Shown: piece by piece, positions 1,187 through 59,553 of the stretch | Numbering within the stretch: position 1 is the stretch's first letter | How the letters are laid out: every line of letters starts with the position of its first letter | Origin: a virus | Taxonomy: Duplodnaviria; Caudoviricetes | Virus record (IMG/VR): IMGVR_UViG_3300022555_000003 | Location: 160,001-224,000 of that record | Length of the DNA stretch: 64,000 bases | Strand: one strand, 5' to 3' | Translations under genes and position numbers: made by a program | Notes under the pieces: model-generated | Told to the model about the DNA's origin: nothing | The model's input: the letters and a program-made list of their open reading frames with translations, nothing else | The model's database searches: none

Positions 1187-2207
1187 TACCGTGCGGAGAA
1201 CTTTCTTTAAAACCACTGTTTGATACCTGAACAAAATCTGCGTTTCGTCTGAGTTCACTTAAATTCTTAGCCCCACAATATGATAATCCCGATCTAACTC
1301 CTTCAACTAGTTGTCCAACAATTGTTTTAACATGTCCTTTATATGGAACTAGTGTTTCTTCACCTTCAACATATCTTGCTCTGCCAACTACTTCAAATTT
1401 TTGTCCGTATGATGCTGACCCACGATATACTTTGTATAAAGATCCTTTGTGCTTGATTACATTACCGGGGGCTTCTTTTGTTCCAGCTAACAAACTACCA
1501 AGCATAACAGCATCGGCGCCTGCTGCTAAAGCTTTAACAATGTCACCAGAATTTTTAATTCCACCATCAGCTATGATATTTATATCGTCACATCTACCTT
1601 TAATATCTACAATACTTTGGAAAGTCGGAAGACCACAACCAGTAACTACTCTTGTAGTACAAGCCGATCCGCCACCAATTCCGACTTTAAATGCTATATG
1701 AGAAGTATTACAATTTATCTTCTCATACAATCTCCATACTGCATCAGCAGTTGCATAATTTCCAATTATTAATGGAATATCTCCAAACTGATCTCTAATT
1801 TGTAATACAGCGTCAATAACTGTTGGTGAATCAGCATGAGCAACGTCAATACAAACTCCTGAAATATTGTTACCGACAACACTATTAAAAAGATATTTCA
1901 ATCTTGTAATGCCAAGAGAAGATCCTTCTATTGAGATCCAAACATCATATAGGCTTTTATTTAGAATAGACTCTTGTTCTTCAGGATTCATCATACGATG
2001 TAATATTCCAAATCCTCCTAATTCATACATTGCATTTAACATATCAGATTCTGTTACTGCTGACATATTAGCAGAAATAATTGGAATCTTATATGTCAAG
2101 CCACAAATTTGTGTACTTAAATCTGCTTCGTCTCTACTTCCACCAAATGTTTGTTTTGGAGTAAGTAACACATCGTCAAAACACAATGCCTGCTTAATAA
2201 TTTTCAT
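1182..2207 (-). CDS. IMP dehydrogenase / GMP reductase family (no CBS domains)
   Basis: FDDVLL, ISANM, GIGGGSACTTR (catalytic Cys), IIADGGI, GADAVMLGSLLAG, YRGSAS, VEG motifs. Confidence 0.9.
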   Translation of the reverse strand: MKIIKQALCFDDVLLTPKQTFGGSRDEADLSTQICGLTYKIPIISANMSAVTESDMLNAMYELGGFGILHRMMNPEEQESILNKSLYDVWISIEGSSLGITRLKYLFNSVVGNNISGVCIDVAHADSPTVIDAVLQIRDQFGDIPLIIGNYATADAVWRLYEKINCNTSHIAFKVGIGGGSACTTRVVTGCGLPTFQSIVDIKGRCDDINIIADGGIKNSGDIVKALAAGADAVMLGSLLAGTKEAPGNVIKHKGSLYKVYRGSASYGQKFEVVGRARYVEGEETLVPYKGHVKTIVGQLVEGVRSGLSYCGAKNLSELRRNADFVQVSNSGFKESSPHGT

Positions 2208-2932
2208 ACTTTTTCTATTATTATATCTCCTGTTGTAGTTTCAAGTAAAGCTACATGCTTCAGATTTGTATCGAGATTTAAATTCTTCCCATTATACATA
2301 GGCTCATCGATAATTGTGTGACCAACCACTTGATTAATTCCTTTTACATCTTTGAATTCTTCACGCCAATCTTGCCAAGTAATTCCACCATGCTTGTTAA
2401 ATCCCCATCTTGCCTGGCCTGCCATTAACAATGGATCTTTTACGTTGTTTGTAAATTTGAATGAAATATCTCTATTCAACGTTTCAAAATATGTTGGACT
2501 TAATTTTGCATATGGCTGTATAAAAGATGGATGAATTCCAGCATGAGAAAATACTATTAACTTATCATCAAATTTTTCAGCATGAACAAATTTAAGATTT
2601 TCATCTAACCAAGTAGATCCAAGAATTTTTGTTACTATGTGATGTTTATTTCTATCATACCCACTGCAACCATATCTATTGAATAAATCAAAATATTGTA
2701 CATCATGATTGCCAGTTAACATAATATTTTTAGGATCAGTTGCTAGTTCCTTTAGATAATAACAAAACTTTTCGTGATGTTCATACATTTGATTATATTC
2801 AAAACTATCAAGATAATCACCTAAAAAAATTCGCTTATCTACATGAGGATACTTATCAATAATATCTTGAACTTCATATAGTTTTTCGTGTATATCTGGT
2901 ATAATTAAATATTCCATATTGATAACTCCCAT
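2204..2932 (-). CDS. calcineurin-like metallophosphoesterase
   Basis: DIH, GDYLD, GNHD, SHAG, GHT motifs. Confidence 0.85.
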   Translation of the reverse strand: MGVINMEYLIIPDIHEKLYEVQDIIDKYPHVDKRIFLGDYLDSFEYNQMYEHHEKFCYYLKELATDPKNIMLTGNHDVQYFDLFNRYGCSGYDRNKHHIVTKILGSTWLDENLKFVHAEKFDDKLIVFSHAGIHPSFIQPYAKLSPTYFETLNRDISFKFTNNVKDPLLMAGQARWGFNKHGGITWQDWREEFKDVKGINQVVGHTIIDEPMYNGKNLNLDTNLKHVALLETTTGDIIIEKV

Positions 2933-3363
2933 GCATCTAAAAATTTATTTAGCTTCCCACCACACATTGCCATACAAACAGATTCTTCTTGACCTAATAC
3001 CCAAAATTCATCAATGAAATCATATACAACATTACAATACCAAGGACTTTTTAATTTGTCTAAAGATAATATCACTCGGCCTGTATATAACGTGTTAACT
3101 TGAAATGGTTTCACCCTAAGTTCATCTGGGGTATTTTTAAAAAACTGTTCATACCCCAAACTAGTTAATCTAAACGATTTAGTTGATGAGTGCTTCCACC
3201 ATAATTTATTAGCTTCTTTAAGTGTTTTTGGTGAATAAGCAACTACAACAGTTGTATTTTTTATATCAAAATACTGTTTAGTAATTTCATCGCGGTTCAT
3301 ATTTAGACACTTGTTCGATAGTTGGACAATTTTTCTTTTCCATATATGGACCAACATATCCAT
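2905..3363 (-). CDS. hypothetical protein (true start probably MNRDEI near 3300)
   Basis: ORF tiles the operon; no motif recognised. Confidence 0.6.
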   Translation of the reverse strand: MDMLVHIWKRKIVQLSNKCLNMNRDEITKQYFDIKNTTVVVAYSPKTLKEANKLWWKHSSTKSFRLTSLGYEQFFKNTPDELRVKPFQVNTLYTGRVILSLDKLKSPWYCNVVYDFIDEFWVLGQEESVCMAMCGGKLNKFLDAWELSIWNI

Positions 3364-3754
3364 ACTTATCTAGTGTTATCCGTTTTGGGCAGAACATATA
3401 AATCCAACCCTTCTTGCCATAATTTACAACATAGAATCCAGCTGCCCGCTTTGATTTAGAATTGGTTTCTGTTGTGTATAGTGGTAATCGCCTACAAACA
3501 TCAAACTCTCTATTGTATGGAAAAGTTTTTGTTGGATAACCAAATACATCATTCTTATTATCAATATTAATTTTAAATCTCTGCCAGTCTATTTCGTATG
3601 TTTTTTCAACAGACGATAAATCCTTAAATTTTTCAAGTAATTTACCTCTGTTAAACTCAACTCCATGTTGCTTAACATTTATATTTCCAATCTTCTTTTC
3701 ATTTTGTAAAATAATCCAAAAATCGTCTGAAATATTTTTAGCTGTTAATTTCAT
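3287..3754 (-). CDS. hypothetical protein
   Basis: 155-aa ORF overlapping both neighbours on the same strand. Confidence 0.7.
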   Translation of the reverse strand: MKLTAKNISDDFWIILQNEKKIGNINVKQHGVEFNRGKLLEKFKDLSSVEKTYEIDWQRFKINIDNKNDVFGYPTKTFPYNREFDVCRRLPLYTTETNSKSKRAAGFYVVNYGKKGWIYMFCPKRITLDKYGYVGPYMEKKNCPTIEQVSKYEPR

Positions 3755-3986
3755 CTATAACCCTTTTATCATTAAAGACAACAACTTCTTCAATCTGTTC
3801 TAATATAGCTTTATCTACGATTCCAACTTTCACATTATTTAGCACAATAATAACTGCTAGATACTTAGCATACAACTCAAGATAATTATTGTATTCTATT
3901 TCATTCCTAATAGATTTTCCAGCAAAAAATGATAGCGTCATTAATATTATCAATGGGACCGCAATAACAAAATATGTATATGTCAA
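3738..3986 (-). CDS. small membrane protein
   Basis: GGAG SD then TTG at 3986; hydrophobic N-terminal segment. Confidence 0.6.
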   Translation of the reverse strand: MTYTYFVIAVPLIILMTLSFFAGKSIRNEIEYNNYLELYAKYLAVIIVLNNVKVGIVDKAILEQIEEVVVFNDKRVIDEINS

Positions 3987-3996
3987 ATAAATCTCC

Positions 3997-4983
3997 TTAC
4001 TTGCATTGACCTGAAAGGATCCGACCAAATTCAGATGCCTGGTCACTTAACTTAACTAAATTGTGTTTGCCACAGAATTTTAAAAAATGTGTACCAATCA
4101 TTGCACGATCCAGAACTGAAATTTTTTCAATCGTTTCGTTTATTAATTGTCTAATTTCGGGAGGTTGAGCAGTTAGATCAATTAATGTCTTATTACGATT
4201 ATAATCATCTAAAACTTTGTGCTCAATATTATTGTGATCAACCCAACGTTGCATCATCAAATTAGTCCAAGCAAAACCTTGCTTGACATCATTAAATGCT
4301 TCCCGTAATCCAATTTTATTTTTAGAACTCTTTTCCCTTACTCCTGGATAAGCACTGAAAACGTGATCTGTTGAATCACCTCTAACAATTTTTTCAAACA
4401 ATGCAAACTTTGGATCGGGAATTTCTTTTGGCTGTTTCGTTTTCTTATCTAAAATCCTATTACCACGATAATCAAAGATGCCATCAACTGTAATTAATTC
4501 GCCAGTAATACCATTATACTGTTTTACATTTGATGCTAATAACTGAATAAAATCAGTATCGCTACTAATGATTACGTGATCATCATCTGGGTGAGTTTGA
4601 ACCCAGCCAGCAATTAAATCGTCTCCTTCCAATTGTTTATGCTGCAAAATAGTGCAGTTTGTTTTTTCATTCAAAAAATTTGTAAGTTGATCAAATCCTT
4701 CGAAAAATTGTTTAGATGTATCAACTTCTTCTTGCGTCTGAGCAGCCCTAGCTTCGATACGATGACGTTTATATGGAGGATAAAACTCTCTTCTCCAACT
4801 ACGACCTTCAAGACAAAATACAACATGATCGGCATTCTGTTCCCGCCAACATTTTGCAATGCTCGCTAAACTTGTATGAATAGAAAGACCTACTTGTTCT
4901 TCAATCGAGCTATTTTTATTACTGGCATGCATCATTCTAAAATACAGATTTGCCAAGTCCATTACAAGGTATGTCTTCTTCAT
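3997..4983 (-). CDS. rnh: T4-type RNase H / 5'-3' flap exonuclease
   Basis: N-terminal D (VMDLAN), YKRHR, LEGDDLIA, SSDTDFIQL, GDSTDHV (FEN/PIN acidic motifs). Confidence 0.88.
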   Translation of the reverse strand: MKKTYLVMDLANLYFRMMHASNKNSSIEEQVGLSIHTSLASIAKCWREQNADHVVFCLEGRSWRREFYPPYKRHRIEARAAQTQEEVDTSKQFFEGFDQLTNFLNEKTNCTILQHKQLEGDDLIAGWVQTHPDDDHVIISSDTDFIQLLASNVKQYNGITGELITVDGIFDYRGNRILDKKTKQPKEIPDPKFALFEKIVRGDSTDHVFSAYPGVREKSSKNKIGLREAFNDVKQGFAWTNLMMQRWVDHNNIEHKVLDDYNRNKTLIDLTAQPPEIRQLINETIEKISVLDRAMIGTHFLKFCGKHNLVKLSDQASEFGRILSGQCK

Positions 4984-46770: not shown

Positions 46771-49050
46771 TTAATATTCAGTAACAAGTTCTTCAACTTG
46801 AATTTTACTGATATTGGATTGGACAGTGATCTTTAACTCTCCGTCCCAATCCAATAGTAACTTTGACTCATCAGCGACATTATCAAATAAGATCTTCTTG
46901 CTCAATGGAAGTTTGATTAACTTACTAACTTTGCGTGCTAATGGTCTCGCACCCATTTTATCATCAACACCAGTTTCAATAATGTAATCAATTAACTTTT
47001 CACTAGCAACAACCTGGAACTTCTTTGCTGATAGTAAATTATTGATATCGTTGATCAAGCTAACAACAATCTTACGATAACTCAAATTATCAAGCTTATT
47101 GAATGTGCAAATTGCACTTAGTCTATTTCTAAACTCTGGCTTGAAAAAGTCTTTAATTGCACTCTTATTGTTTTTCTTAGAACTTTGATCAAACCCAATT
47201 AAATTTTGTTCCATCTCTACAGATCCAAGATTGCTTGTTAAAACAATAATACTTTCTCTGCAATTTGCTTGCTTACCAACTCCATTGATATAACCTTCAT
47301 CCATCATTTGTAGTAGGATTAATGTAACATCAGGATGAGCCTTTTCAATCTCATCAAATAAAATAATGCTATTTGGATGAATTTCAATTTCATTAACAAG
47401 CTGGCCGCCACCCATTGTGCTATCATCAAAACCTACATACCCAGGAGGTGCTCCAATTAGTTTTGATACTGAATGCTTTTCTTGATATTCACTACAATCA
47501 ACTCTGATCAAGTGCATATTCAATTGTTTGCTCAACTCTTTACAAATCAATGTCTTGCCAACACCAGTTGGTCCAAGTAGCAAGAAGCTGCCAATTGGCT
47601 TATTAGGATCTTTCAACCCAGCCTTGCTGATAAGTAATTCATCAGTGATGATATCAACTGCTTCATCTTGACCATATACTACTTTCTTTACTTCAAAGCT
47701 TAGATCTTTGATTTTTTCAGTTTGAACTTCATCTAGCTGTTCAAGAGGAATCTTAGTTGCTTTACTAATTTCTAGCTGGATATCAGACTTATTAACTATC
47801 CAATCTGTTGCATCTAAAATTTTAAATTTTGCACAAGCACTATCAATTAGATCAATTGCCTTATCAGGTAACTTTAACTCTTTCTGATAGCGAATACTCA
47901 AATCAACTGCTTCATCAATGGCTTCGTCTGTAATAAATCCACCATGAAATGTTTCAAAGTAACTCTTAATTCCACGTAAGATTTGTTTTGCTTTGTTTGG
48001 AGTTGGCTCAGTTAACATTAACTTACGGAACCTTCGCATCAAAGCTTTATCTTTTTCAAATGACTTTTTGTACTCTTCCCAAGTTGTACTTGCAATAACT
48101 TTAATTCTGCCCTTTGAGATAGCAGGTTTGAGCATATTTGCTAAATCTGGACCACCAGAAGATCCTGATCCTGCACCAGACATTTGATGGGCTTCATCAA
48201 TGAATAAAATGCATTTTCCGGTTACCGAAAGAGCATCAATGATCTCTACAATCTTTTCTTCAAATTCGCCTCTGTACTTGGTACCAGCTAACAAGGTACC
48301 AATATCAAGATTCCAAACTGTCCAATCTTTTAAGTAATTTGGTACAAATCCTTTAGCAATATTTAATGCAAGACCTTCAATCAGACATGTTTTACCAATA
48401 CCACTATCACCAATCAATAGTACATTGGACTTATTTTTCTTTGCTAAAATTTGAGTGATATCAGTGAGCTCTTCTTCGCGACCAATAACAGGATCAATTT
48501 TACCATCGTTTGCAAGTGCGTTCAAATTGATACAATGCTTTTCTAGAAGTTCAAGAGCTTGATTGGTGTCCATCTTTCCTTTTTCAGCAGTTACTTTGTG
48601 TTCTTGATAATTATCTTCGTAAAATTTGATAAATTTTTCAGAATCTTCATTGGTAGAACCTAAATGCTTCTTCAGTATATATGCTGCATAGCTGGTTGTT
48701 TCTTGCGTAATGCTAACATAGATATCAATCAATCTAATATGATCACGACCTTGAAATACAACCAAATTAGCAGAACGTTCAATCACTCTTGATAACGTTG
48801 CTGTTTTAACTGGATTTGTTTGAGTCTGAGTATTCTGAGTAATAAGTTTTTGATCAGATACATACTTGTTGATTTCTGAATGCATCTGATTAGTATCAAC
48901 ACCATACTTAGATAATATATCTTTGAAATTCTTGTAGCATGTCAATGAATACAATAAATGTTCTAATGTCAAATATTGGTGATTCAAAGACTTGGCATAT
49001 TCAACAGTCTTCTGAAGTACTAAACTAAGTTCTGGATTTTCTCTTAACAA
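46771..49050 (-). CDS. clpA: ClpA-like Hsp100 AAA+ ATPase with IGF loop
   Basis: Clp N-domain (LEHLL), DPVIGREEE, GDSGIGKT, FIDEAH, GPTGVGKT, LFDEIEKAHP, NLIGF, FKPEFRNRL, GARPL. Confidence 0.92.
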   Translation of the reverse strand: MLRENPELSLVLQKTVEYAKSLNHQYLTLEHLLYSLTCYKNFKDILSKYGVDTNQMHSEINKYVSDQKLITQNTQTQTNPVKTATLSRVIERSANLVVFQGRDHIRLIDIYVSITQETTSYAAYILKKHLGSTNEDSEKFIKFYEDNYQEHKVTAEKGKMDTNQALELLEKHCINLNALANDGKIDPVIGREEELTDITQILAKKNKSNVLLIGDSGIGKTCLIEGLALNIAKGFVPNYLKDWTVWNLDIGTLLAGTKYRGEFEEKIVEIIDALSVTGKCILFIDEAHQMSGAGSGSSGGPDLANMLKPAISKGRIKVIASTTWEEYKKSFEKDKALMRRFRKLMLTEPTPNKAKQILRGIKSYFETFHGGFITDEAIDEAVDLSIRYQKELKLPDKAIDLIDSACAKFKILDATDWIVNKSDIQLEISKATKIPLEQLDEVQTEKIKDLSFEVKKVVYGQDEAVDIITDELLISKAGLKDPNKPIGSFLLLGPTGVGKTLICKELSKQLNMHLIRVDCSEYQEKHSVSKLIGAPPGYVGFDDSTMGGGQLVNEIEIHPNSIILFDEIEKAHPDVTLILLQMMDEGYINGVGKQANCRESIIVLTSNLGSVEMEQNLIGFDQSSKKNNKSAIKDFFKPEFRNRLSAICTFNKLDNLSYRKIVVSLINDINNLLSAKKFQVVASEKLIDYIIETGVDDKMGARPLARKVSKLIKLPLSKKILFDNVADESKLLLDWDGELKITVQSNISKIQVEELVTEY

Positions 49051-53261: not shown

Positions 53262-53981
53262 ATGTCCAAGAAGCAACAACAACAACAAAAACAATCAAAA
53301 CCAGTAACTGATAATACAATACAATTTGAACGTATCCAAAAACGTACTAGCATTGTACCCAGAAATTTAGTACAAGAAGAGTACTTAGATATGTTAATGG
53401 ATACTCAAAAAGTAATTGTATTTGCAGTTGGCCCAGCTGGAACTGGTAAAACACTTTTATCCATGATGGCTGGTGTAAGAGCACTTAAAGAAGGCATTGT
53501 TAAAAAATTAATTTTAACTAGGCCAGCTATTGGAGTTGATGGAGAAGAGCACGGATTTTTGCCTGGCGATATAAATGCTAAAATGGCACCGTGGACTTTA
53601 CCACTTATGGATATTATAAACGAATGTTATGATCATACTCAAGTTGAAAAAATGTTACTTGAGCAAACAATCGAACTAGCTCCACTTTCTTTTATGAGAG
53701 GAAGAAATTTTGCTAATGCTTGGATTGTGTTTGATGAAGCACAAAATTCTACAGTTAATCAAATGAAGATGGTATTAACACGTATTAGTACAAATAGCAA
53801 AGCTATTATAACTGGTGATCTTGAACAAGTTGATAGACAGTTTGCTAAAATTAATGGGTTAAAAGATATTTTAACTAGACTTCCTGACGATGATAAAATG
53901 ATTGGAAAAGTTACATTTGGGCGTGAACATATTGAACGTCATCCGATTGTGTCGAAAGTGCTCAGTCTATACGGAGAATAA
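53262..53981 (+). CDS. phoH: PhoH-family ATPase
   Basis: GPAGTGKT, LTRPA, GFLPGD, PLSFMRGR, DEAQN, TGDLEQVD, RHPIV. Confidence 0.95.
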   Translation: MSKKQQQQQKQSKPVTDNTIQFERIQKRTSIVPRNLVQEEYLDMLMDTQKVIVFAVGPAGTGKTLLSMMAGVRALKEGIVKKLILTRPAIGVDGEEHGFLPGDINAKMAPWTLPLMDIINECYDHTQVEKMLLEQTIELAPLSFMRGRNFANAWIVFDEAQNSTVNQMKMVLTRISTNSKAIITGDLEQVDRQFAKINGLKDILTRLPDDDKMIGKVTFGREHIERHPIVSKVLSLYGE

Positions 53982-54785: not shown

Positions 54786-54964
54786 TTTATCCTTTTTTCT
54801 AATTCTGTAATTCGTTCACGTAATACCTGGTTAACATCATCTGCATCAACTTTATAATCCAATAGATAAACGATATGATTTACGCCATAAGTTTTATGAT
54901 GTTCTAAAATTTTATCTCGTATTTCAATGGGTAATGGTCCAATATTTTTCATATTATTTCTCAA
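54782..54964 (-). CDS. small hypothetical protein
   Basis: 60-aa ORF overlapping both neighbours. Confidence 0.5.
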   Translation of the reverse strand: MRNNMKNIGPLPIEIRDKILEHHKTYGVNHIVYLLDYKVDADDVNQVLRERITELEKRIK

Positions 54965-55688
54965 GAGCTGATAATTCTACAAATAATGCGGCAACATTTA
55001 TTTCTGGATCACAAACCAAACTTGCATTTACAGCCGCTTTTCTGATAATCAAGATTGCTTCATCTTTACCTTCTTCTGTATTAGCAAATAAATCCAAATT
55101 TTGATAAGTCCATGTAATTAACGAATCGATTTCATCTGGTCTAATTTGTGAGCAAATTAAAGTCCTTGCTTCTCTAAATTTTCCTTGCTTAAATAAATTT
55201 ACTGCTTCAACTTTGTAATCATTGGCATCTACTTCTTCAGATTCGCTAATAGTTAATTTCTTATCAATAGAATTCAATTGGCAAATATTAATGCATTTTC
55301 GTAAATCTGGATATGTAGCTTTTACATAAGTATCAATTGTATCAAGATCAAAATCAATATTTTCAGCAATTAATATTTCAGCTATTCTTGTTGTAAACGA
55401 AGTTAGATCTAACTTATCAATATGTAGGCATTGGCATCTACCTTTAACAGCTGGAATGATCTTATGAGCATAGTTGCATGTTAGAATAAATCTAGACGTC
55501 AAAGCATATTCTTCCATAAGCCCACGTAAGATACCTTGAGCACCTGGGGAGAGAAAATCACAATTATGAGTTAAAAAATTCCCGTTGTTGATAAAGAAGT
55601 TATGGGTTCCTGGTACCGATATATCAAAAACTTTAGCTTTTTTTTCAATTACCTTAATTGATTTTATTTTTAATTCGACCATTTTCAA
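54954..55688 (-). CDS. clamp loader small subunit C-extein preceded by split-intein C-fragment
   Basis: IntC ...VFDISVPGTHNFFINNGNFLTHN (55688-55563) then C-extein CDFLSPGAQGILRGLME...FILTCNYAHKIIPAVKGRC. Confidence 0.9.
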   Translation of the reverse strand: MKMVELKIKSIKVIEKKAKVFDISVPGTHNFFINNGNFLTHNCDFLSPGAQGILRGLMEEYALTSRFILTCNYAHKIIPAVKGRCQCLHIDKLDLTSFTTRIAEILIAENIDFDLDTIDTYVKATYPDLRKCINICQLNSIDKKLTISESEEVDANDYKVEAVNLFKQGKFREARTLICSQIRPDEIDSLITWTYQNLDLFANTEEGKDEAILIIRKAAVNASLVCDPEINVAALFVELSALEK

Positions 55689-56676
55689 TACCTTTTAACA
55701 TTTTATCTAACTGTTTCTTATTATTTTCGTTAGCAGAAAACTGTTCTTTGTTAATATAAGTCAATATGTTATTTTCATTTACCCAAATAAACTTAATATC
55801 ATTTGATATACAATATTCTATCACTTTACTTATTTTGTAATTACATTCTTTCATTGTGTTTGTTGGTTTAATTTCATATAAAATCTTATTATATGGATCA
55901 TAAAAATCTGCTATATATGTTCTGCCATTATTACTTTCATCAATATATGGTATCCTAAATTTTTCATATAATAGATCTGAATTACAAATAGCAAAACATG
56001 CTTCCCAGCTACTTCTATACTTTCTTTCTTCATTATTAATTATAGCAAAAGCTGACCAATGAGTCCACGAATTTGTAATACACGGAACAAATAAACCATT
56101 TGCAATTTTTCTTTTCATTATAACTGAATTTTTTTCAGCTGTAGATTTTAAATTACTTTTACCTTTTTCAGTCAGATTAAACGCTTTCATTTTTTCGGAA
56201 TTTATATTACCAACTTTTTTGGCACATATCTTTCCTTCTTCGGTTTGAAACCATATTTTTTTAGAATTAGAAATTTTAAGTCCAGCATTTGGATGTTTTT
56301 TTTGTTTCCATCTTTTTAATTTAGTACATGATCGGCATCGCTTCAATTGGTTAATTTGATATTGTTCTATACTATGTTCGATACTGCATTCTATACATTT
56401 TTTCAAAGTCTTTGAAAAAAAATCGATATAATAATATAATTTATATCTACAATCTTTAATTACTTTAGCACCCACTTCTTGTTTCCATGCATTTTCGGTT
56501 TTATGTATTTTGGCTGGAAATAACACAGATGTTAATTTATTTTGTGTTTTTGAATAATTAATGGCTAATTCTTGTAATTGCTGATCAGTATAATATTCAG
56601 CAATTCTGTTTTTTCCTCCTAAACCATTTTTAATTGCTAATTCTCTAAATTTTTGTTTTTGCTCTTCTGAAAACAT
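55654..56676 (-). CDS. free-standing PD-(D/E)xK (TnsA-N-like) endonuclease between intein halves
   Basis: YRSSWE...IPY...TYIADF...LYEIKP; basic N-terminus with CxxC pairs. Confidence 0.78.
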   Translation of the reverse strand: MFSEEQKQKFRELAIKNGLGGKNRIAEYYTDQQLQELAINYSKTQNKLTSVLFPAKIHKTENAWKQEVGAKVIKDCRYKLYYYIDFFSKTLKKCIECSIEHSIEQYQINQLKRCRSCTKLKRWKQKKHPNAGLKISNSKKIWFQTEEGKICAKKVGNINSEKMKAFNLTEKGKSNLKSTAEKNSVIMKRKIANGLFVPCITNSWTHWSAFAIINNEERKYRSSWEACFAICNSDLLYEKFRIPYIDESNNGRTYIADFYDPYNKILYEIKPTNTMKECNYKISKVIEYCISNDIKFIWVNENNILTYINKEQFSANENNKKQLDKMLKGIENGRIKNKIN

Positions 56677-56679
56677 ATG

Positions 56680-56706
56680 CTTGCGAGTTCCTTCACAAGT
56701 ATTTAG
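56680..56706 (-). promoter_or_regulatory. late promoter abutting an SD-sequestering hairpin
   Basis: CTAAATA-CTTGTGA-AGGAAC-TCGCAAG-CAT-ATG. Confidence 0.7.
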
Positions 56707-56707
56707 C

Positions 56708-57337
56708 TTATGTTGTTAAAATATGATTATATTTATATAAGTCTTTAGCTTTAACAACAATGGTATTTCCGTTTTCATCTTTTACATACCATTTATGAGT
56801 TGGGGTACATAAAACTTTCTCATTATTTTCAAATTCAATTTCTAATAAATCTTGAATACCTTTATAGAATAAAGAAAATGGTTTCCATAATATTGTATTT
56901 GTTTTAATGCAAAAAGTTTTTACTAAATCTGTATCATCTTTCAAATCCTTTATTGGAATATGCTGAACTGTTCCATCTCTAAGAATAGTTACTGTGGTAT
57001 TTTCTTCTAAACACTCATCAAGTAATACAATTTTCATATCACCAAATGGCATAGTGCTGATAAAATTTGTAATCTTATTACGCATATCATCAACACTATT
57101 CTCACGGCTTGCATTAATCTCGAGTAGATCATACTTATGAATATTCAGTGCTTTAATAAGAATCTTAGCTAGAGTTGTTTTTCCAGTTCCAGTTGGACCT
57201 TCTAATAGAATATGATTAATTTGTTTTTCATTAATCCATTTTTCAATTTGAGATTGTTGCTGTAGACTTGAAAATACATAGCCTGACAGAGTGTCAGGCC
57301 TGTATAATTCTGTCCAAATTGTTTGAACCGTTGCCAT
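56708..57337 (-). CDS. clamp loader small subunit (RFC/gp44-like) N-extein plus split-intein N-fragment
   Basis: WTELYRP, GPTGTGKT, EINASREN, IVLLDE, then IntN from Cys109 (57013): CLEENTTV...CTPTHKWYV (block B TxxH). Confidence 0.9.
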   Translation of the reverse strand: MATVQTIWTELYRPDTLSGYVFSSLQQQSQIEKWINEKQINHILLEGPTGTGKTTLAKILIKALNIHKYDLLEINASRENSVDDMRNKITNFISTMPFGDMKIVLLDECLEENTTVTILRDGTVQHIPIKDLKDDTDLVKTFCIKTNTILWKPFSLFYKGIQDLLEIEFENNEKVLCTPTHKWYVKDENGNTIVVKAKDLYKYNHILTT

Positions 57338-57385: not shown

Positions 57386-57715
57386 TTATGCAACTCCTAC
57401 AGCATCATCTTCGTTAGGAAATACATCAGATACAGCAAGAATTGCTTTTGTGTCTACTAATCGAATAACATCATCACTAATTTTAACACCACGAGACCAT
57501 CGTCCGTGTTCAATTAATAAGTATTGACCTACGCTAATATCTTCTTGCTTTGGTCCAATTGCATAAACCCTTCCCCATCGTGGTCTAATGCCGGTAGATT
57601 TTGCATCATCAGACAGCAAAATGATACCCGCTTTAGTTTTTCGTTCGCTAAAGTTCATCTCTTTAACTAAGACATTATCTCGTAATGGTACTACTGTTCC
57701 ATCATACTGTTGCAT
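57386..57715 (-). CDS. groES: GroES-like co-chaperonin
   Basis: PLRDNVLV, TKAGIIL mobile loop, GRVYAIGP, ISVGQ. Confidence 0.88.
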   Translation of the reverse strand: MQQYDGTVVPLRDNVLVKEMNFSERKTKAGIILLSDDAKSTGIRPRWGRVYAIGPKQEDISVGQYLLIEHGRWSRGVKISDDVIRLVDTKAILAVSDVFPNEDDAVGVA

Positions 57716-58346: not shown

Positions 58347-58856
58347 CTATTTCAAAAAATCTTTGTAATTTAATTCCCACTTAATGGAATTAATTTTGTG
58401 TACTCCTAATTTATAAAGTACAAAACTCGAAACGCTACTCCCTCTTCCAATACCAAGTACAATATTATTTTCTTTAAGTGTTGTAACCATATAATGTAAG
58501 TACCTAAGTAAATCTATTAAATTAAATTCTTCATATAGTATTAGCTCTTGTGCAATTCGTGTAAGTTCTACGTCATCTTTGCACGAATCTACTAAAATTT
58601 TAATTATGTCTATTTGTTTATACTTATCTGGCATCAGCCAAATTGATTGTAATTGTGTATGAAAATCTTCAGCAACTTCACATTGTGACCATTGCGGTAA
58701 TAGTGCAAAATCGCTATACAATTCTCTGATGGCATCATTATATTTTGATAATCCAACAATGCTAGTAATAGATATGTTTGCATCAGGATTAGTTTTAATA
58801 ATATCTATTAACTCTTCTTCTGTGCGACCTACTAAACCACAATCACTAATTTTCAT
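58347..58856 (-). CDS. stand-alone fragment resembling DNA polymerase III alpha (DnaE)
   Basis: IVLGIGRGSSVSSFVLYKLGVHKIN matches the DnaE GxGRGS..GS.V.Y.LGIT motif. Confidence 0.65.
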   Translation of the reverse strand: MKISDCGLVGRTEEELIDIIKTNPDANISITSIVGLSKYNDAIRELYSDFALLPQWSQCEVAEDFHTQLQSIWLMPDKYKQIDIIKILVDSCKDDVELTRIAQELILYEEFNLIDLLRYLHYMVTTLKENNIVLGIGRGSSVSSFVLYKLGVHKINSIKWELNYKDFLK

Positions 58857-59553
58857 TCGTACTTTTGCCACCATCAACAACTTCTACTTTAAATTTATTA
58901 CTCTTTGGCTTTCTCTTATTCTTAGGTTTCGGAACTTTCATCTCAATAATGTCAGCTAATTTTTCAGGAATAAATTCTATATCTAATTCTTCATCAGTAT
59001 CTTCAACAAAATTTAAACCTAAATCATCCCATGTTAGAAATTCATCTTCTGAATCATTAACATCAATATCAACTAACAAAGCATCGTTTTTATGCCACCA
59101 CGGCCAAAATTGTTTCTTTTTTCCTGTTGGCTTTTCTAAAGCAAATGGTCCTAGTGCATCACCAGCAGTGTAATCATACCATACATTGTCACCAAATGTA
59201 CTACTAATTCGAACGCGATTACAAATTAGAGTGTCCTCCATAACAGCATTTATTTTGCAGAATATAGCCAAGCCAATAATCTGATCAAATGCTTCATCAG
59301 GAAATAGTACCATCTTTCCTGGATATAAATTAGCCAATGATTCAAAATTTGTGTTATTAGCAGATATAAAAATACTGTTGTTAAACAGTGTTGTAATAAC
59401 AAACTTCATACGTTCAAAAGCTATATTTTGAAACTTGGAACTTTCTGTATTTGTCACCATTTGCAATTCGACAAAGAAATGATTAGGAAAAATCTTATCA
59501 TCAAAAACGCAAATACCTAAAAAATTACAATTCCAATCCAGTTTAACGTTCAT
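58846..59553 (-). CDS. hypothetical protein with acidic/basic tail
   Basis: 235-aa ORF. Confidence 0.65.
   Translation of the reverse strand: MNVKLDWNCNFLGICVFDDKIFPNHFFVELQMVTNTESSKFQNIAFERMKFVITTLFNNSIFISANNTNFESLANLYPGKMVLFPDEAFDQIIGLAIFCKINAVMEDTLICNRVRISSTFGDNVWYDYTAGDALGPFALEKPTGKKKQFWPWWHKNDALLVDIDVNDSEDEFLTWDDLGLNFVEDTDEELDIEFIPEKLADIIEMKVPKPKNKRKPKSNKFKVEVVDGGKSTNEN

Follow-up and report, generated by a model that had tools for sequence, protein, structure and literature searches.

Fractured genes, in which the two parts of a host gene, each joined to one part of a split intein, flank a free-standing endonuclease gene, have been known since 2009 from the work of Dassa, London, Stoddard, Schueler-Furman and Pietrokovski (Dassa et al. 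2009, PMC2677866), who described gp41-1, gp41-8, NrdJ-1, NrdA-2, IMPDH-1 and others. The hosts in that set are gp41, IMPDH, DnaE, NrdA, NrdJ, ligase, terminase and one unknown protein, and the nucleases are GIY-YIG or Vsr-like (PMC2677866); a 2025 survey gives LAGLIDADG, HNH, GIY-YIG, Vsr-like and endonuclease-VII-like nucleases as intein-associated. Among clamp loaders, cyanobacterial DnaX (Pol III gamma/tau) carries an intein at insertion point 'a', right after Walker B, that was found only in Cyanobacteria in the survey of Novikova et al. (2016, PMC4760082). We report here an analysis of a 64,000-nucleotide stretch of virus DNA (the window), positions 160,001 to 224,000 of IMG/VR record IMGVR_UViG_3300022555_000003, in which a phage clamp-loader gene at window positions 54954-57337 (minus strand) is interrupted. 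We think it quite probable that this is a fractured gene in which a class-1 intein lies after the Walker-B Asp-Glu of the clamp loader and is itself broken by a free-standing nuclease gene, the intein halves being expected to trans-splice and the nuclease to home.

Anatomy of the fractured clamp-loader gene

The locus consists of three minus-strand open reading frames (ORFs), each in a different reading frame, which for convenience we call the N ORF, the nuclease ORF and the C ORF. Their parts, where IntN and IntC are the N- and C-terminal parts of the putative intein, are as follows (lengths in amino acids, aa, or nucleotides, nt; all coordinates are window positions).

57014..57337, minus strand: N-extein of an RFC/gp44-like clamp-loader large subunit, 108 aa, matching PHROG 168 profile positions 7-109 (E 2e-29)
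56711..57013, minus strand: IntN, 101 aa, with Cys1 at residue 109 and block B at T178..H181; its TAA stop is at 56708-56710
56677..56707, minus strand: spacer between the IntN stop and the nuclease gene, 31 nt
55654..56676, minus strand: free-standing gene for the predicted nuclease, 340 aa
55747..56127, minus strand: predicted catalytic core of the nuclease, residues 184-310, with invariant E238, D257, E268 and K270
55654..55682, minus strand: overlap of the nuclease 3' end with the IntC start codon (ATG 55682), 29 nt
55563..55682, minus strand: IntC, 40 aa from ATG 55682 (42 aa from TTG 55688), ending FLTHN
54954..55562, minus strand: C-extein, 202 aa plus stop, starting CDFLS and matching PHROG 168 profile positions 109-309 (E 1e-35)

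The N ORF (57337..56708) encodes 209 aa, of which residues 1-108 are the clamp loader's N-terminal part, with a Walker A motif (GPTGTGKT) and a C-terminal end that is the Walker B motif (KIVLLDE), and residues 109-209 are IntN, which begins with C109, contains T178-P-T-H181 and ends NHILTT just before the TAA. The C ORF starts (at ATG 55682 or TTG 55688) within the last 29-35 nt of the nuclease ORF and opens with a Lys-rich IntC that ends FLTHN and is followed by the C-extein, CDFLSPGAQ. A preliminary description of this DNA, made from its letters, had noted an N-extein ending LLDE, a 101-aa IntN with Cys1 and TxxH, a 40-42-aa IntC ending THN, a +1 Cys and a separate nuclease ORF, and the translations bear out every one of these features. 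Its proposed splice junction, LLDE-CDFLS, agrees with the profile matches: the clamp-loader profile PHROG 168 is matched up to position 109 in the N ORF and from position 109 in the C ORF, so the exteins abut exactly. The extein residues next to the intein are -1 Glu, +1 Cys and +2 Asp, and the spliced product is predicted to be a 310-aa RFC/gp44-like protein with the joint at Walker B.

Both intein parts are recognised by the Pfam Intein_splicing model, the N ORF over profile positions 2-93 (E 1e-6, 29.1 bits) and the C ORF over positions 122-155 (E 3.4e-6, 27.4 bits); as neither ORF contains the complete domain, both scores lie under the model's cut-off of 35.8 bits. The joined exteins show the features of an RFC/gp44-type clamp-loader AAA+ ATPase. 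The translation contains GPTGTGKT, LLDE, a sensor 1 TCN and a GRC arginine finger; RFC small subunits match it at E values of about 1e-13 and T4 gp44 at 9e-8, and in the match to the RFC small subunit 2chg_A (E 8.5e-14) the LDE-A of that protein aligns with the LDE-C of the window. The C-extein carries sensor 1, the arginine-finger motif and the lid and collar domains, and its matches to the RFC1 and Gp44 lids are weak.

The intein parts and their relatives

More than 120 clusters with the same N-extein plus IntN architecture (203-216 aa, 49-66% identity) were retrieved when the N ORF was used as query, on contigs of up to 217 kb. Across 119 N-half clusters the Cys1 residue (C109) is present in 100%, the block-B Thr (T178) in 100% and the block-B His (H181) in 99%, and all junctions are DE-C. 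All 38 distinct C halves that were taken from IMG/VR loci have the terminal Asn and the +1 Cys; in the penultimate position of IntC, 27 of them have His, 10 have Ser and one has Gly, and the window has His (H39-N40). The locus has the sequence motifs of a class-1 intein (C109, T178 and H181, H39-N40 of IntC, and C+1). Mean identity to the window is 57% for IntN and 54% for the N-extein, and since IntN is conserved as much as the N-extein, the intein, and with it splicing, appears to be under purifying selection.

These relatives bear directly on an alternative explanation, namely that the intein halves serve as a non-covalent dimerisation module and the clamp loader works as two chains without splicing, like the split NrdA of Aeh1. 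Genes in pieces that work without splicing have precedent (PMC3045599; an SbcD-like locus), and replacement of the penultimate His by Ser or Gly in some of the related IntC sequences is in keeping with such a role. However, more than 100 relatives show almost no variation at Cys1, at the block-B Thr and His, at the terminal Asn or at the +1 Cys, and the IntC of the window itself has the canonical HN. Moreover, the +1 residue is Ala in intein-less alleles and the nucleophile Cys in every intein-bearing allele, a substitution that is expected only under selection for splicing chemistry. We consider a two-chain clamp loader very improbable, and trans-splicing by these conserved residues very likely.

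Comparison with a contiguous relative shows where the intein has been divided. The clamp-loader allele L009 carries a contiguous mini-intein of 148 aa at the same DE-C site; the window's IntN aligns with its residues 1-77 (57% identity) and the window's IntC with its residues 109-148 (43% identity), and this colinear alignment of both halves indicates that the split point is canonical. IntN has a net charge of -2 and the Lys-rich IntC one of +3, and we infer that the two would form one HINT fold. A more distant contiguous mini-intein is present in locus L029. Allele L009 (3602-5215) was observed to carry a second intein in its P-loop (VIHHN-TS) in addition to the one at DE-C, and to have two inteins with no nuclease gene.

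The window's IntN had no match at E<0.1 among PDB sequences (best E 0.14). The contiguous mini-intein of L009 does match solved structures, with NrdJ-1 at E 2e-5 and Npu DnaE at E 5e-5, and neither a 2020 paper on a split-intein library nor a 2025 split-intein review lists a clamp-loader intein. By these comparisons of sequence, none of the solved or reviewed split inteins is closely related to the pair, and its earlier designation as a candidate new trans-splicing pair stands.

The nuclease between the intein halves

The predicted nuclease of the window has no Pfam match at E<=1. Its PHROG matches are to family 22417, of unknown function, and to family 15427, labelled 'endonuclease'. A word search found 163 homologs, and an exhaustive profile search found 2136 nuclease clusters at E<=0.001, 629 of them at E<=1e-30. 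When 47 relatives were aligned, 35 matched PF08722 (TnsA-like endonuclease N-terminal) at E<=0.01 (best 2.6e-9), and none of the 47 matched the Vsr or DUF559 Pfam models. Four residues, E238, D257, E268 and K270, are invariant in the 47 sequences and form a canonical E..D..ExK pattern; an EDxHD motif or a catalytic His is absent among the invariant columns.

An AlphaFold (AF2) model built on the family alignment has a mean predicted local distance difference test score of 92 and shows an N-terminal helical and zinc-ribbon-like region followed by a C-terminal TnsA-N-like PD-(D/E)xK core. In an exhaustive VIA-align comparison the best structural match of the core (model residues 184-310) was TnsA 1t0f_A (Z 8.3, root-mean-square deviation 3.2, 123 residues aligned), followed by I-Bth0305I (Z 5.8), a Neisseria endonuclease-like protein (Z 5.7) and Vsr (Z 5.5). 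A Foldseek search of the PDB gave no match at E<=0.001; TnsA was found there with a probability of 0.92 but an E value of 0.34. Judged from its relatives and its modelled fold, we assign the putative nuclease to a TnsA-N-like PD-(D/E)xK family that is distinct from the Vsr-like/EDxHD enzymes but has the same restriction-endonuclease superfold, with a predicted active site based on Lys instead of His. The TnsA-N-like PD-(D/E)xK label of the preliminary description is upheld by the higher fold score for TnsA than for Vsr, the PF08722 matches and the invariant residues. Nuclease activity of the window protein is likely.

Longer relatives have extra N-terminal zinc-ribbon and helical modules, in line with the modular construction of homing endonucleases in phages. 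Three other resemblances were considered and set aside. T7 endonuclease I is a weak local match of the family profile among PDB sequences (E 0.036) whose acidic motif looks similar, and we did not use it; a kinship with Hef was rejected since Hef is assigned to the EDxHD family (PMC3239194); and the NUMOD3-like look of repeated S-x-K-[MI]-K helices in the N-terminal half of the nuclease has no supporting Pfam match and is not claimed.

Empty, contiguous and split alleles of the clamp-loader site

In 17 IMG/VR loci the clamp-loader gene is uninterrupted and reads VLLDE-ADY, with an Ala codon (GCN) at the +1 position where intein alleles have a Cys codon (TGY). The intein-less loci L025 and L026 share neighbours with the window: a GroES-like gene on the upstream side and, on the downstream side, a small ORF with a homologue in the window. 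The window's gene for the GroES-like co-chaperonin is at 57386-57715, immediately upstream of the clamp loader, a position that is kept in both of these loci. The relatives of the N-extein in cultured phages are all uninterrupted (the PA5oct group, which is closest at 49% identity, and Phosso, Atu_ph07 and XacN1), and the only fractured form that we found in GenBank is in an unannotated 462-kb metagenomic phage. The site thus exists in related phages in intein-less, contiguous mini-intein and split forms. In a maximum-likelihood tree of the joined exteins, the window and L070 lie inside a clade with 100/100 support together with 15 intein-less alleles, and the other intein-bearing alleles lie elsewhere in the tree. 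Mobility of the insert is plausible.

Relatives of the nuclease in other fractured genes

We inspected 80 IMG/VR loci that were found with the nuclease family profile. Most of these are fractured clamp loaders, but members of the family also lie between the intein halves of UvsW/SF2-type helicases, which are split at motif II (DE-CH), and in large-terminase-like ATPases, which are split at IDE-CVTGD and have a short IntN and a long IntC, an atypical division that TerL inteins are known for. Three ATPase gene families therefore carry this nuclease between split-intein halves, always at a Walker-B DE-C. The IntN profile from the clamp loaders finds the helicase IntN sequences at E values of 1e-11 to 1e-6 and finds the unrelated P-loop intein of L009 only at E 0.2. 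Intein and nuclease may accordingly have travelled as a unit from one ATPase gene to another; with one control intein, this comparison of sequences is a lead.

Several individual loci with this nuclease family were recorded. The terminase-like loci L091, L094, L095 and L105 have an IntN of about 25-35 aa and a long IntC that ends SHN-CA, and they resemble the AceL and GOS-TerL atypical split inteins. Two of the loci are in cultured phages. Proteus phage PM2 (L032, MF001355), a T4-like phage, has a fractured uvsW helicase gene at 1919-4690 (minus strand): its N part ends MLMNDE, its IntN begins CFDGDT, its IntC ends GALAHN before CH, and its middle gene, a 291-aa 'hypothetical protein', belongs to the same nuclease family, with both flanking coding sequences called 'DNA helicase' in GenBank. 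Escherichia phage vB_Eco_TB34 (L113, OX001802), a Krischvirus, has its large terminase in two coding sequences at 1679-4826. In the first, a short IntN (at YIDE-CVSGLTK) runs directly and in-frame into the nuclease, giving an IntN-nuclease fusion in an atypical split intein; the second begins with an IntC of about 106 aa that ends ESHN-CAF. The same match to this Krischvirus terminase arrangement was seen in seven records.

The distribution of the family is informative about a second alternative, in which the nuclease is not, or is no longer, a homing enzyme and is instead a resident gene that serves to exclude competing phages or to degrade the DNA of host or rivals, or is kept only because it provides the IntC start. 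The extein tree and the identity values fit a long vertical co-residence, and TnsA-like nucleases have other roles in phages, such as the head completion nuclease of the T4 gp4 type (PMC7824862). Against this, nearly all occurrences of the family are within essential genes that are interrupted at a single type of site, and they span three host gene families and phages that are distant from each other; such a recurrence is what marks a mobile nuclease with site specificity. In addition, the catalytic residues are invariant, and the N-terminal modules vary as they do in other phage homing endonucleases. We regard a purely resident role as rather unlikely, and homing as plausible.

Extending this to the whole family, we tentatively suggest, at what we would call slightly less than an even chance, that the TnsA-N-like nucleases may be an undescribed family of homing endonucleases specialised on the codons for the Walker-B Asp-Glu in genes of P-loop ATPases, which, moving in company with related class-1 inteins, would have repeatedly made split inteins in phage clamp loaders, UvsW-type helicases and large terminases. 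If so, a single insertion site would show every stage of gene breaking, from the empty site through the mini-intein and the split intein with nuclease to the IntN fused to the nuclease.

Integrity and genome context of the locus

The source record is a 242,080-bp IMG/VR virus sequence with inverted terminal repeats, for which CheckV estimates a completeness of 74%. In tblastn searches of the whole record with parts of the locus, the gp44-like gene, the intein and the nuclease were each the sole copy, and no second gp44-like clamp loader was found in the 242 kb of this incomplete record. Apparently, then, this is a freshwater phage of about 240 kb whose single clamp-loader ATPase gene is interrupted. 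The claim in the preliminary description that an essential protein depends on the intein accordingly gains from the finding of a single gp44-like gene, but the dependence itself is a deduction from a record of which part is estimated to be missing. A sliding clamp of the T4 gp45 type (PF02916) was also looked for, but the control genomes gave no match either, which makes this search uninformative.

Logan contigs that were assembled independently from freshwater and lake metagenomes cover the whole stretch with 0 differences and no alternative joints. They come from several studies (2016, 2017 and 2020), although some of the runs may be the source of the IMG/VR record; the public runs listed for the sequence include no RNA run. 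This identity in independent contigs rules out an assembly artefact and shows that the arrangement is reproducible. A third alternative, that the locus is a decaying pseudogene or an artefact of assembly and that clamp loading is provided by another gene, has in its favour that the missing part of the record leaves room for such a gene. It is scarcely credible when set against three intact ORFs, an identical locus sequence across studies and years, hundreds of relatives with the same architecture and the lack of a second gp44-like gene in the 242 kb. The one other AAA+ similarity to the N part of the clamp loader is in a gene for a 759-aa double-AAA+ Clp-like chaperone (46771-49050, minus strand), and it was rejected as a spare clamp loader.

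Several contigs from the same lake metagenomes match only 34-36 nt around the DE-CLEENT junction (56995-57041), with 3-6 differences, and then diverge; other fractured clamp-loader alleles thus appear to co-occur with this phage. A search of GenBank phage DNA gave a single match, of 186 nt within the nuclease, to Proteus phage PM2, and no cultured near-relative of the locus was found there. Elsewhere in the neighbourhood, a PhoH-like gene lies downstream on the opposite strand (53262-53981), and a 177-aa ORF (58347-58880, minus strand), 1 kb from the fractured clamp loader, ends with GIGRGSSVSSFVLY.

Possible control of the nuclease gene

The 31-nt spacer contains a late-promoter-like word, CTAAATA, that matches 6 of the 8 positions of TATAAATA. 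TAAATA-like words are present in many of the related 5' regions, a weak signal in AT-rich DNA. A weak hairpin predicted for the spacer would cover the AAGGA Shine-Dalgarno sequence and the ATG (minimum free energy -9.9 kcal/mol, z -1.65; 16 of 200 shuffled sequences fold as well), and in 42 related 5' regions the mean hairpin z is -1.39, with 16 below -1.5 and a few very strong. A hairpin that masks the ribosome binding site before the nuclease start is suggestive. At the other end of the gene, the overlap between the nuclease and the start of IntC is found in all 34 of the related loci measured, at lengths of 4-65 nt.

Proposed mechanism

The findings above can be put together as follows. The two parts of the clamp-loader gene would be translated separately, the 3' end of the nuclease gene overlapping, and so supplying, the start codon of IntC. 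The oppositely charged IntN (-2) and IntC (+3) would associate into one HINT domain, in which Cys1, the block-B Thr and His, the terminal Asn and the +1 Cys would carry out protein trans-splicing and release a 310-aa clamp loader that reads LLDE-CDFLS where its intein-less relatives read LLDE-ADY. The nuclease of the middle gene is most likely a homing endonuclease that would cut intein-less alleles during co-infection, after which the whole insert would be copied in.

Several observations weigh against this scheme or parts of it. Splicing and cleavage are deduced from sequence and fold. The assignment of the nuclease to its family depends on relatives and on a middling fold score, as the window protein itself has no Pfam match, and the hairpin at the nuclease start is weak (z about -1.6). 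The record is only about 74% complete by the CheckV estimate. The extein tree calls for as few as two gains or losses of the insert and may even reflect a single loss of it, so that it did not demonstrate horizontal transfer or recent homing. Finally, the divergence of the intein keeps pace with that of the extein, as it also would after long vertical residence, and comparison of their identities shows no sign of a recent transfer.

What the locus offers can be stated in terms of use and of test. It is a well-preserved natural split intein in an apparently single-copy replication gene and one member of a large, mostly unannotated family. With more than 100 natural variants, this split intein of canonical size (101 + 40 aa, Cys1/Cys+1) is a source of candidate orthogonal trans-splicing pairs. 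The nucleases may be an additional class of homing endonucleases; the family is large (629 clusters at E<=1e-30), unannotated and tied to one kind of target, the Walker-B DE-C of three ATPase families. The locus is an entry point to this probably undescribed family, and the presence of family members in cultured Proteus and E. coli phages makes direct testing feasible. A clamp-loader site with empty, mini-intein and split alleles is in turn a test bed for the 2009 model, by which split inteins originate from the invasion of a mini-intein by a free-standing endonuclease gene.

Comparison with known systems

The system that most resembles a TnsA-N-like core by fold is TnsA of Tn7 (1t0f, 1f1z; PF08722), which shares with the nuclease core the restriction-endonuclease fold and the pattern of acidic and Lys catalytic residues. 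Unlike TnsA, the nuclease has no TnsA C-terminal domain, no TnsB or TnsC partners and no transposon ends, and its core lies within an intein and is preceded by a helical and zinc-ribbon-like region, to which it is fused at its N-terminal side. The I-Bth0305I/EDxHD 'Vsr-like' enzymes (including Hef; PMC3239194) are similar to it in lying between split-intein halves, in introns or free-standing, in their modular build and in the superfold (Z 5.8), but the nuclease lacks their EDxHD motif and catalytic His. We could not find a description of a TnsA-like nuclease in this role; no paper linking such a nuclease to inteins or homing was found in the literature searched, of which our coverage was incomplete.

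By insertion site, the nearest system is the DnaX intein, which is likewise of class 1 (Cys1) and interrupts a clamp-loader AAA+ ATPase immediately after Walker B, the identity of position being taken from the description in that paper. The DnaX intein is bacterial and contiguous, whereas the present one is in a phage and split, and the four RFC-S intein sites in the same survey differ from the present site (PMC4760082). The preliminary description had called both the nuclease and the host site less typical; this applies mainly to the nuclease, as the allele is common in metagenomes and the Walker-B position was known from DnaX. The split PolB intein of the cultured Pseudomonas jumbo phage MIJ3 (PMC6892783) is also in a fractured replication gene, and in the PA5oct group from which the closest cultured relative of the N-extein comes; it differs in that its host gene is PolB, its intein starts with Ser and its nuclease is HNH (PMC6892783).

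The closest likeness overall is to the fractured genes of Dassa et al. (2009); the preliminary description had likewise given such genes, with a Vsr-like nuclease, as the established precedent. The order is the same and on one strand (N-extein with IntN, spacer, endonuclease gene, IntC with C-extein); the spacer is 31 nt here and 27-51 nt there, and the overlap 29 nt here and 6-69 bp there (PMC2677866). The sizes of IntN and IntC fall inside the ranges of that set (88-105 and 33-54 aa), both have an acidic IntN and a basic IntC, and in both the host is a phage replication gene. The locus differs from that set in its host, as the eight host types there include no RFC/gp44-like clamp loader, in its intein, which is only distantly related to theirs (the best solved match of the contiguous relative being NrdJ-1, at E 2e-5), and in its nuclease, which is TnsA-N-like with D..ExK and not GIY-YIG or Vsr-like/EDxHD. 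Although the nuclease types of the original set are thus lacking, we keep this locus in the class of fractured genes because the type of nuclease describes that set and not the arrangement, and the basic picture of fractured genes is unchanged.

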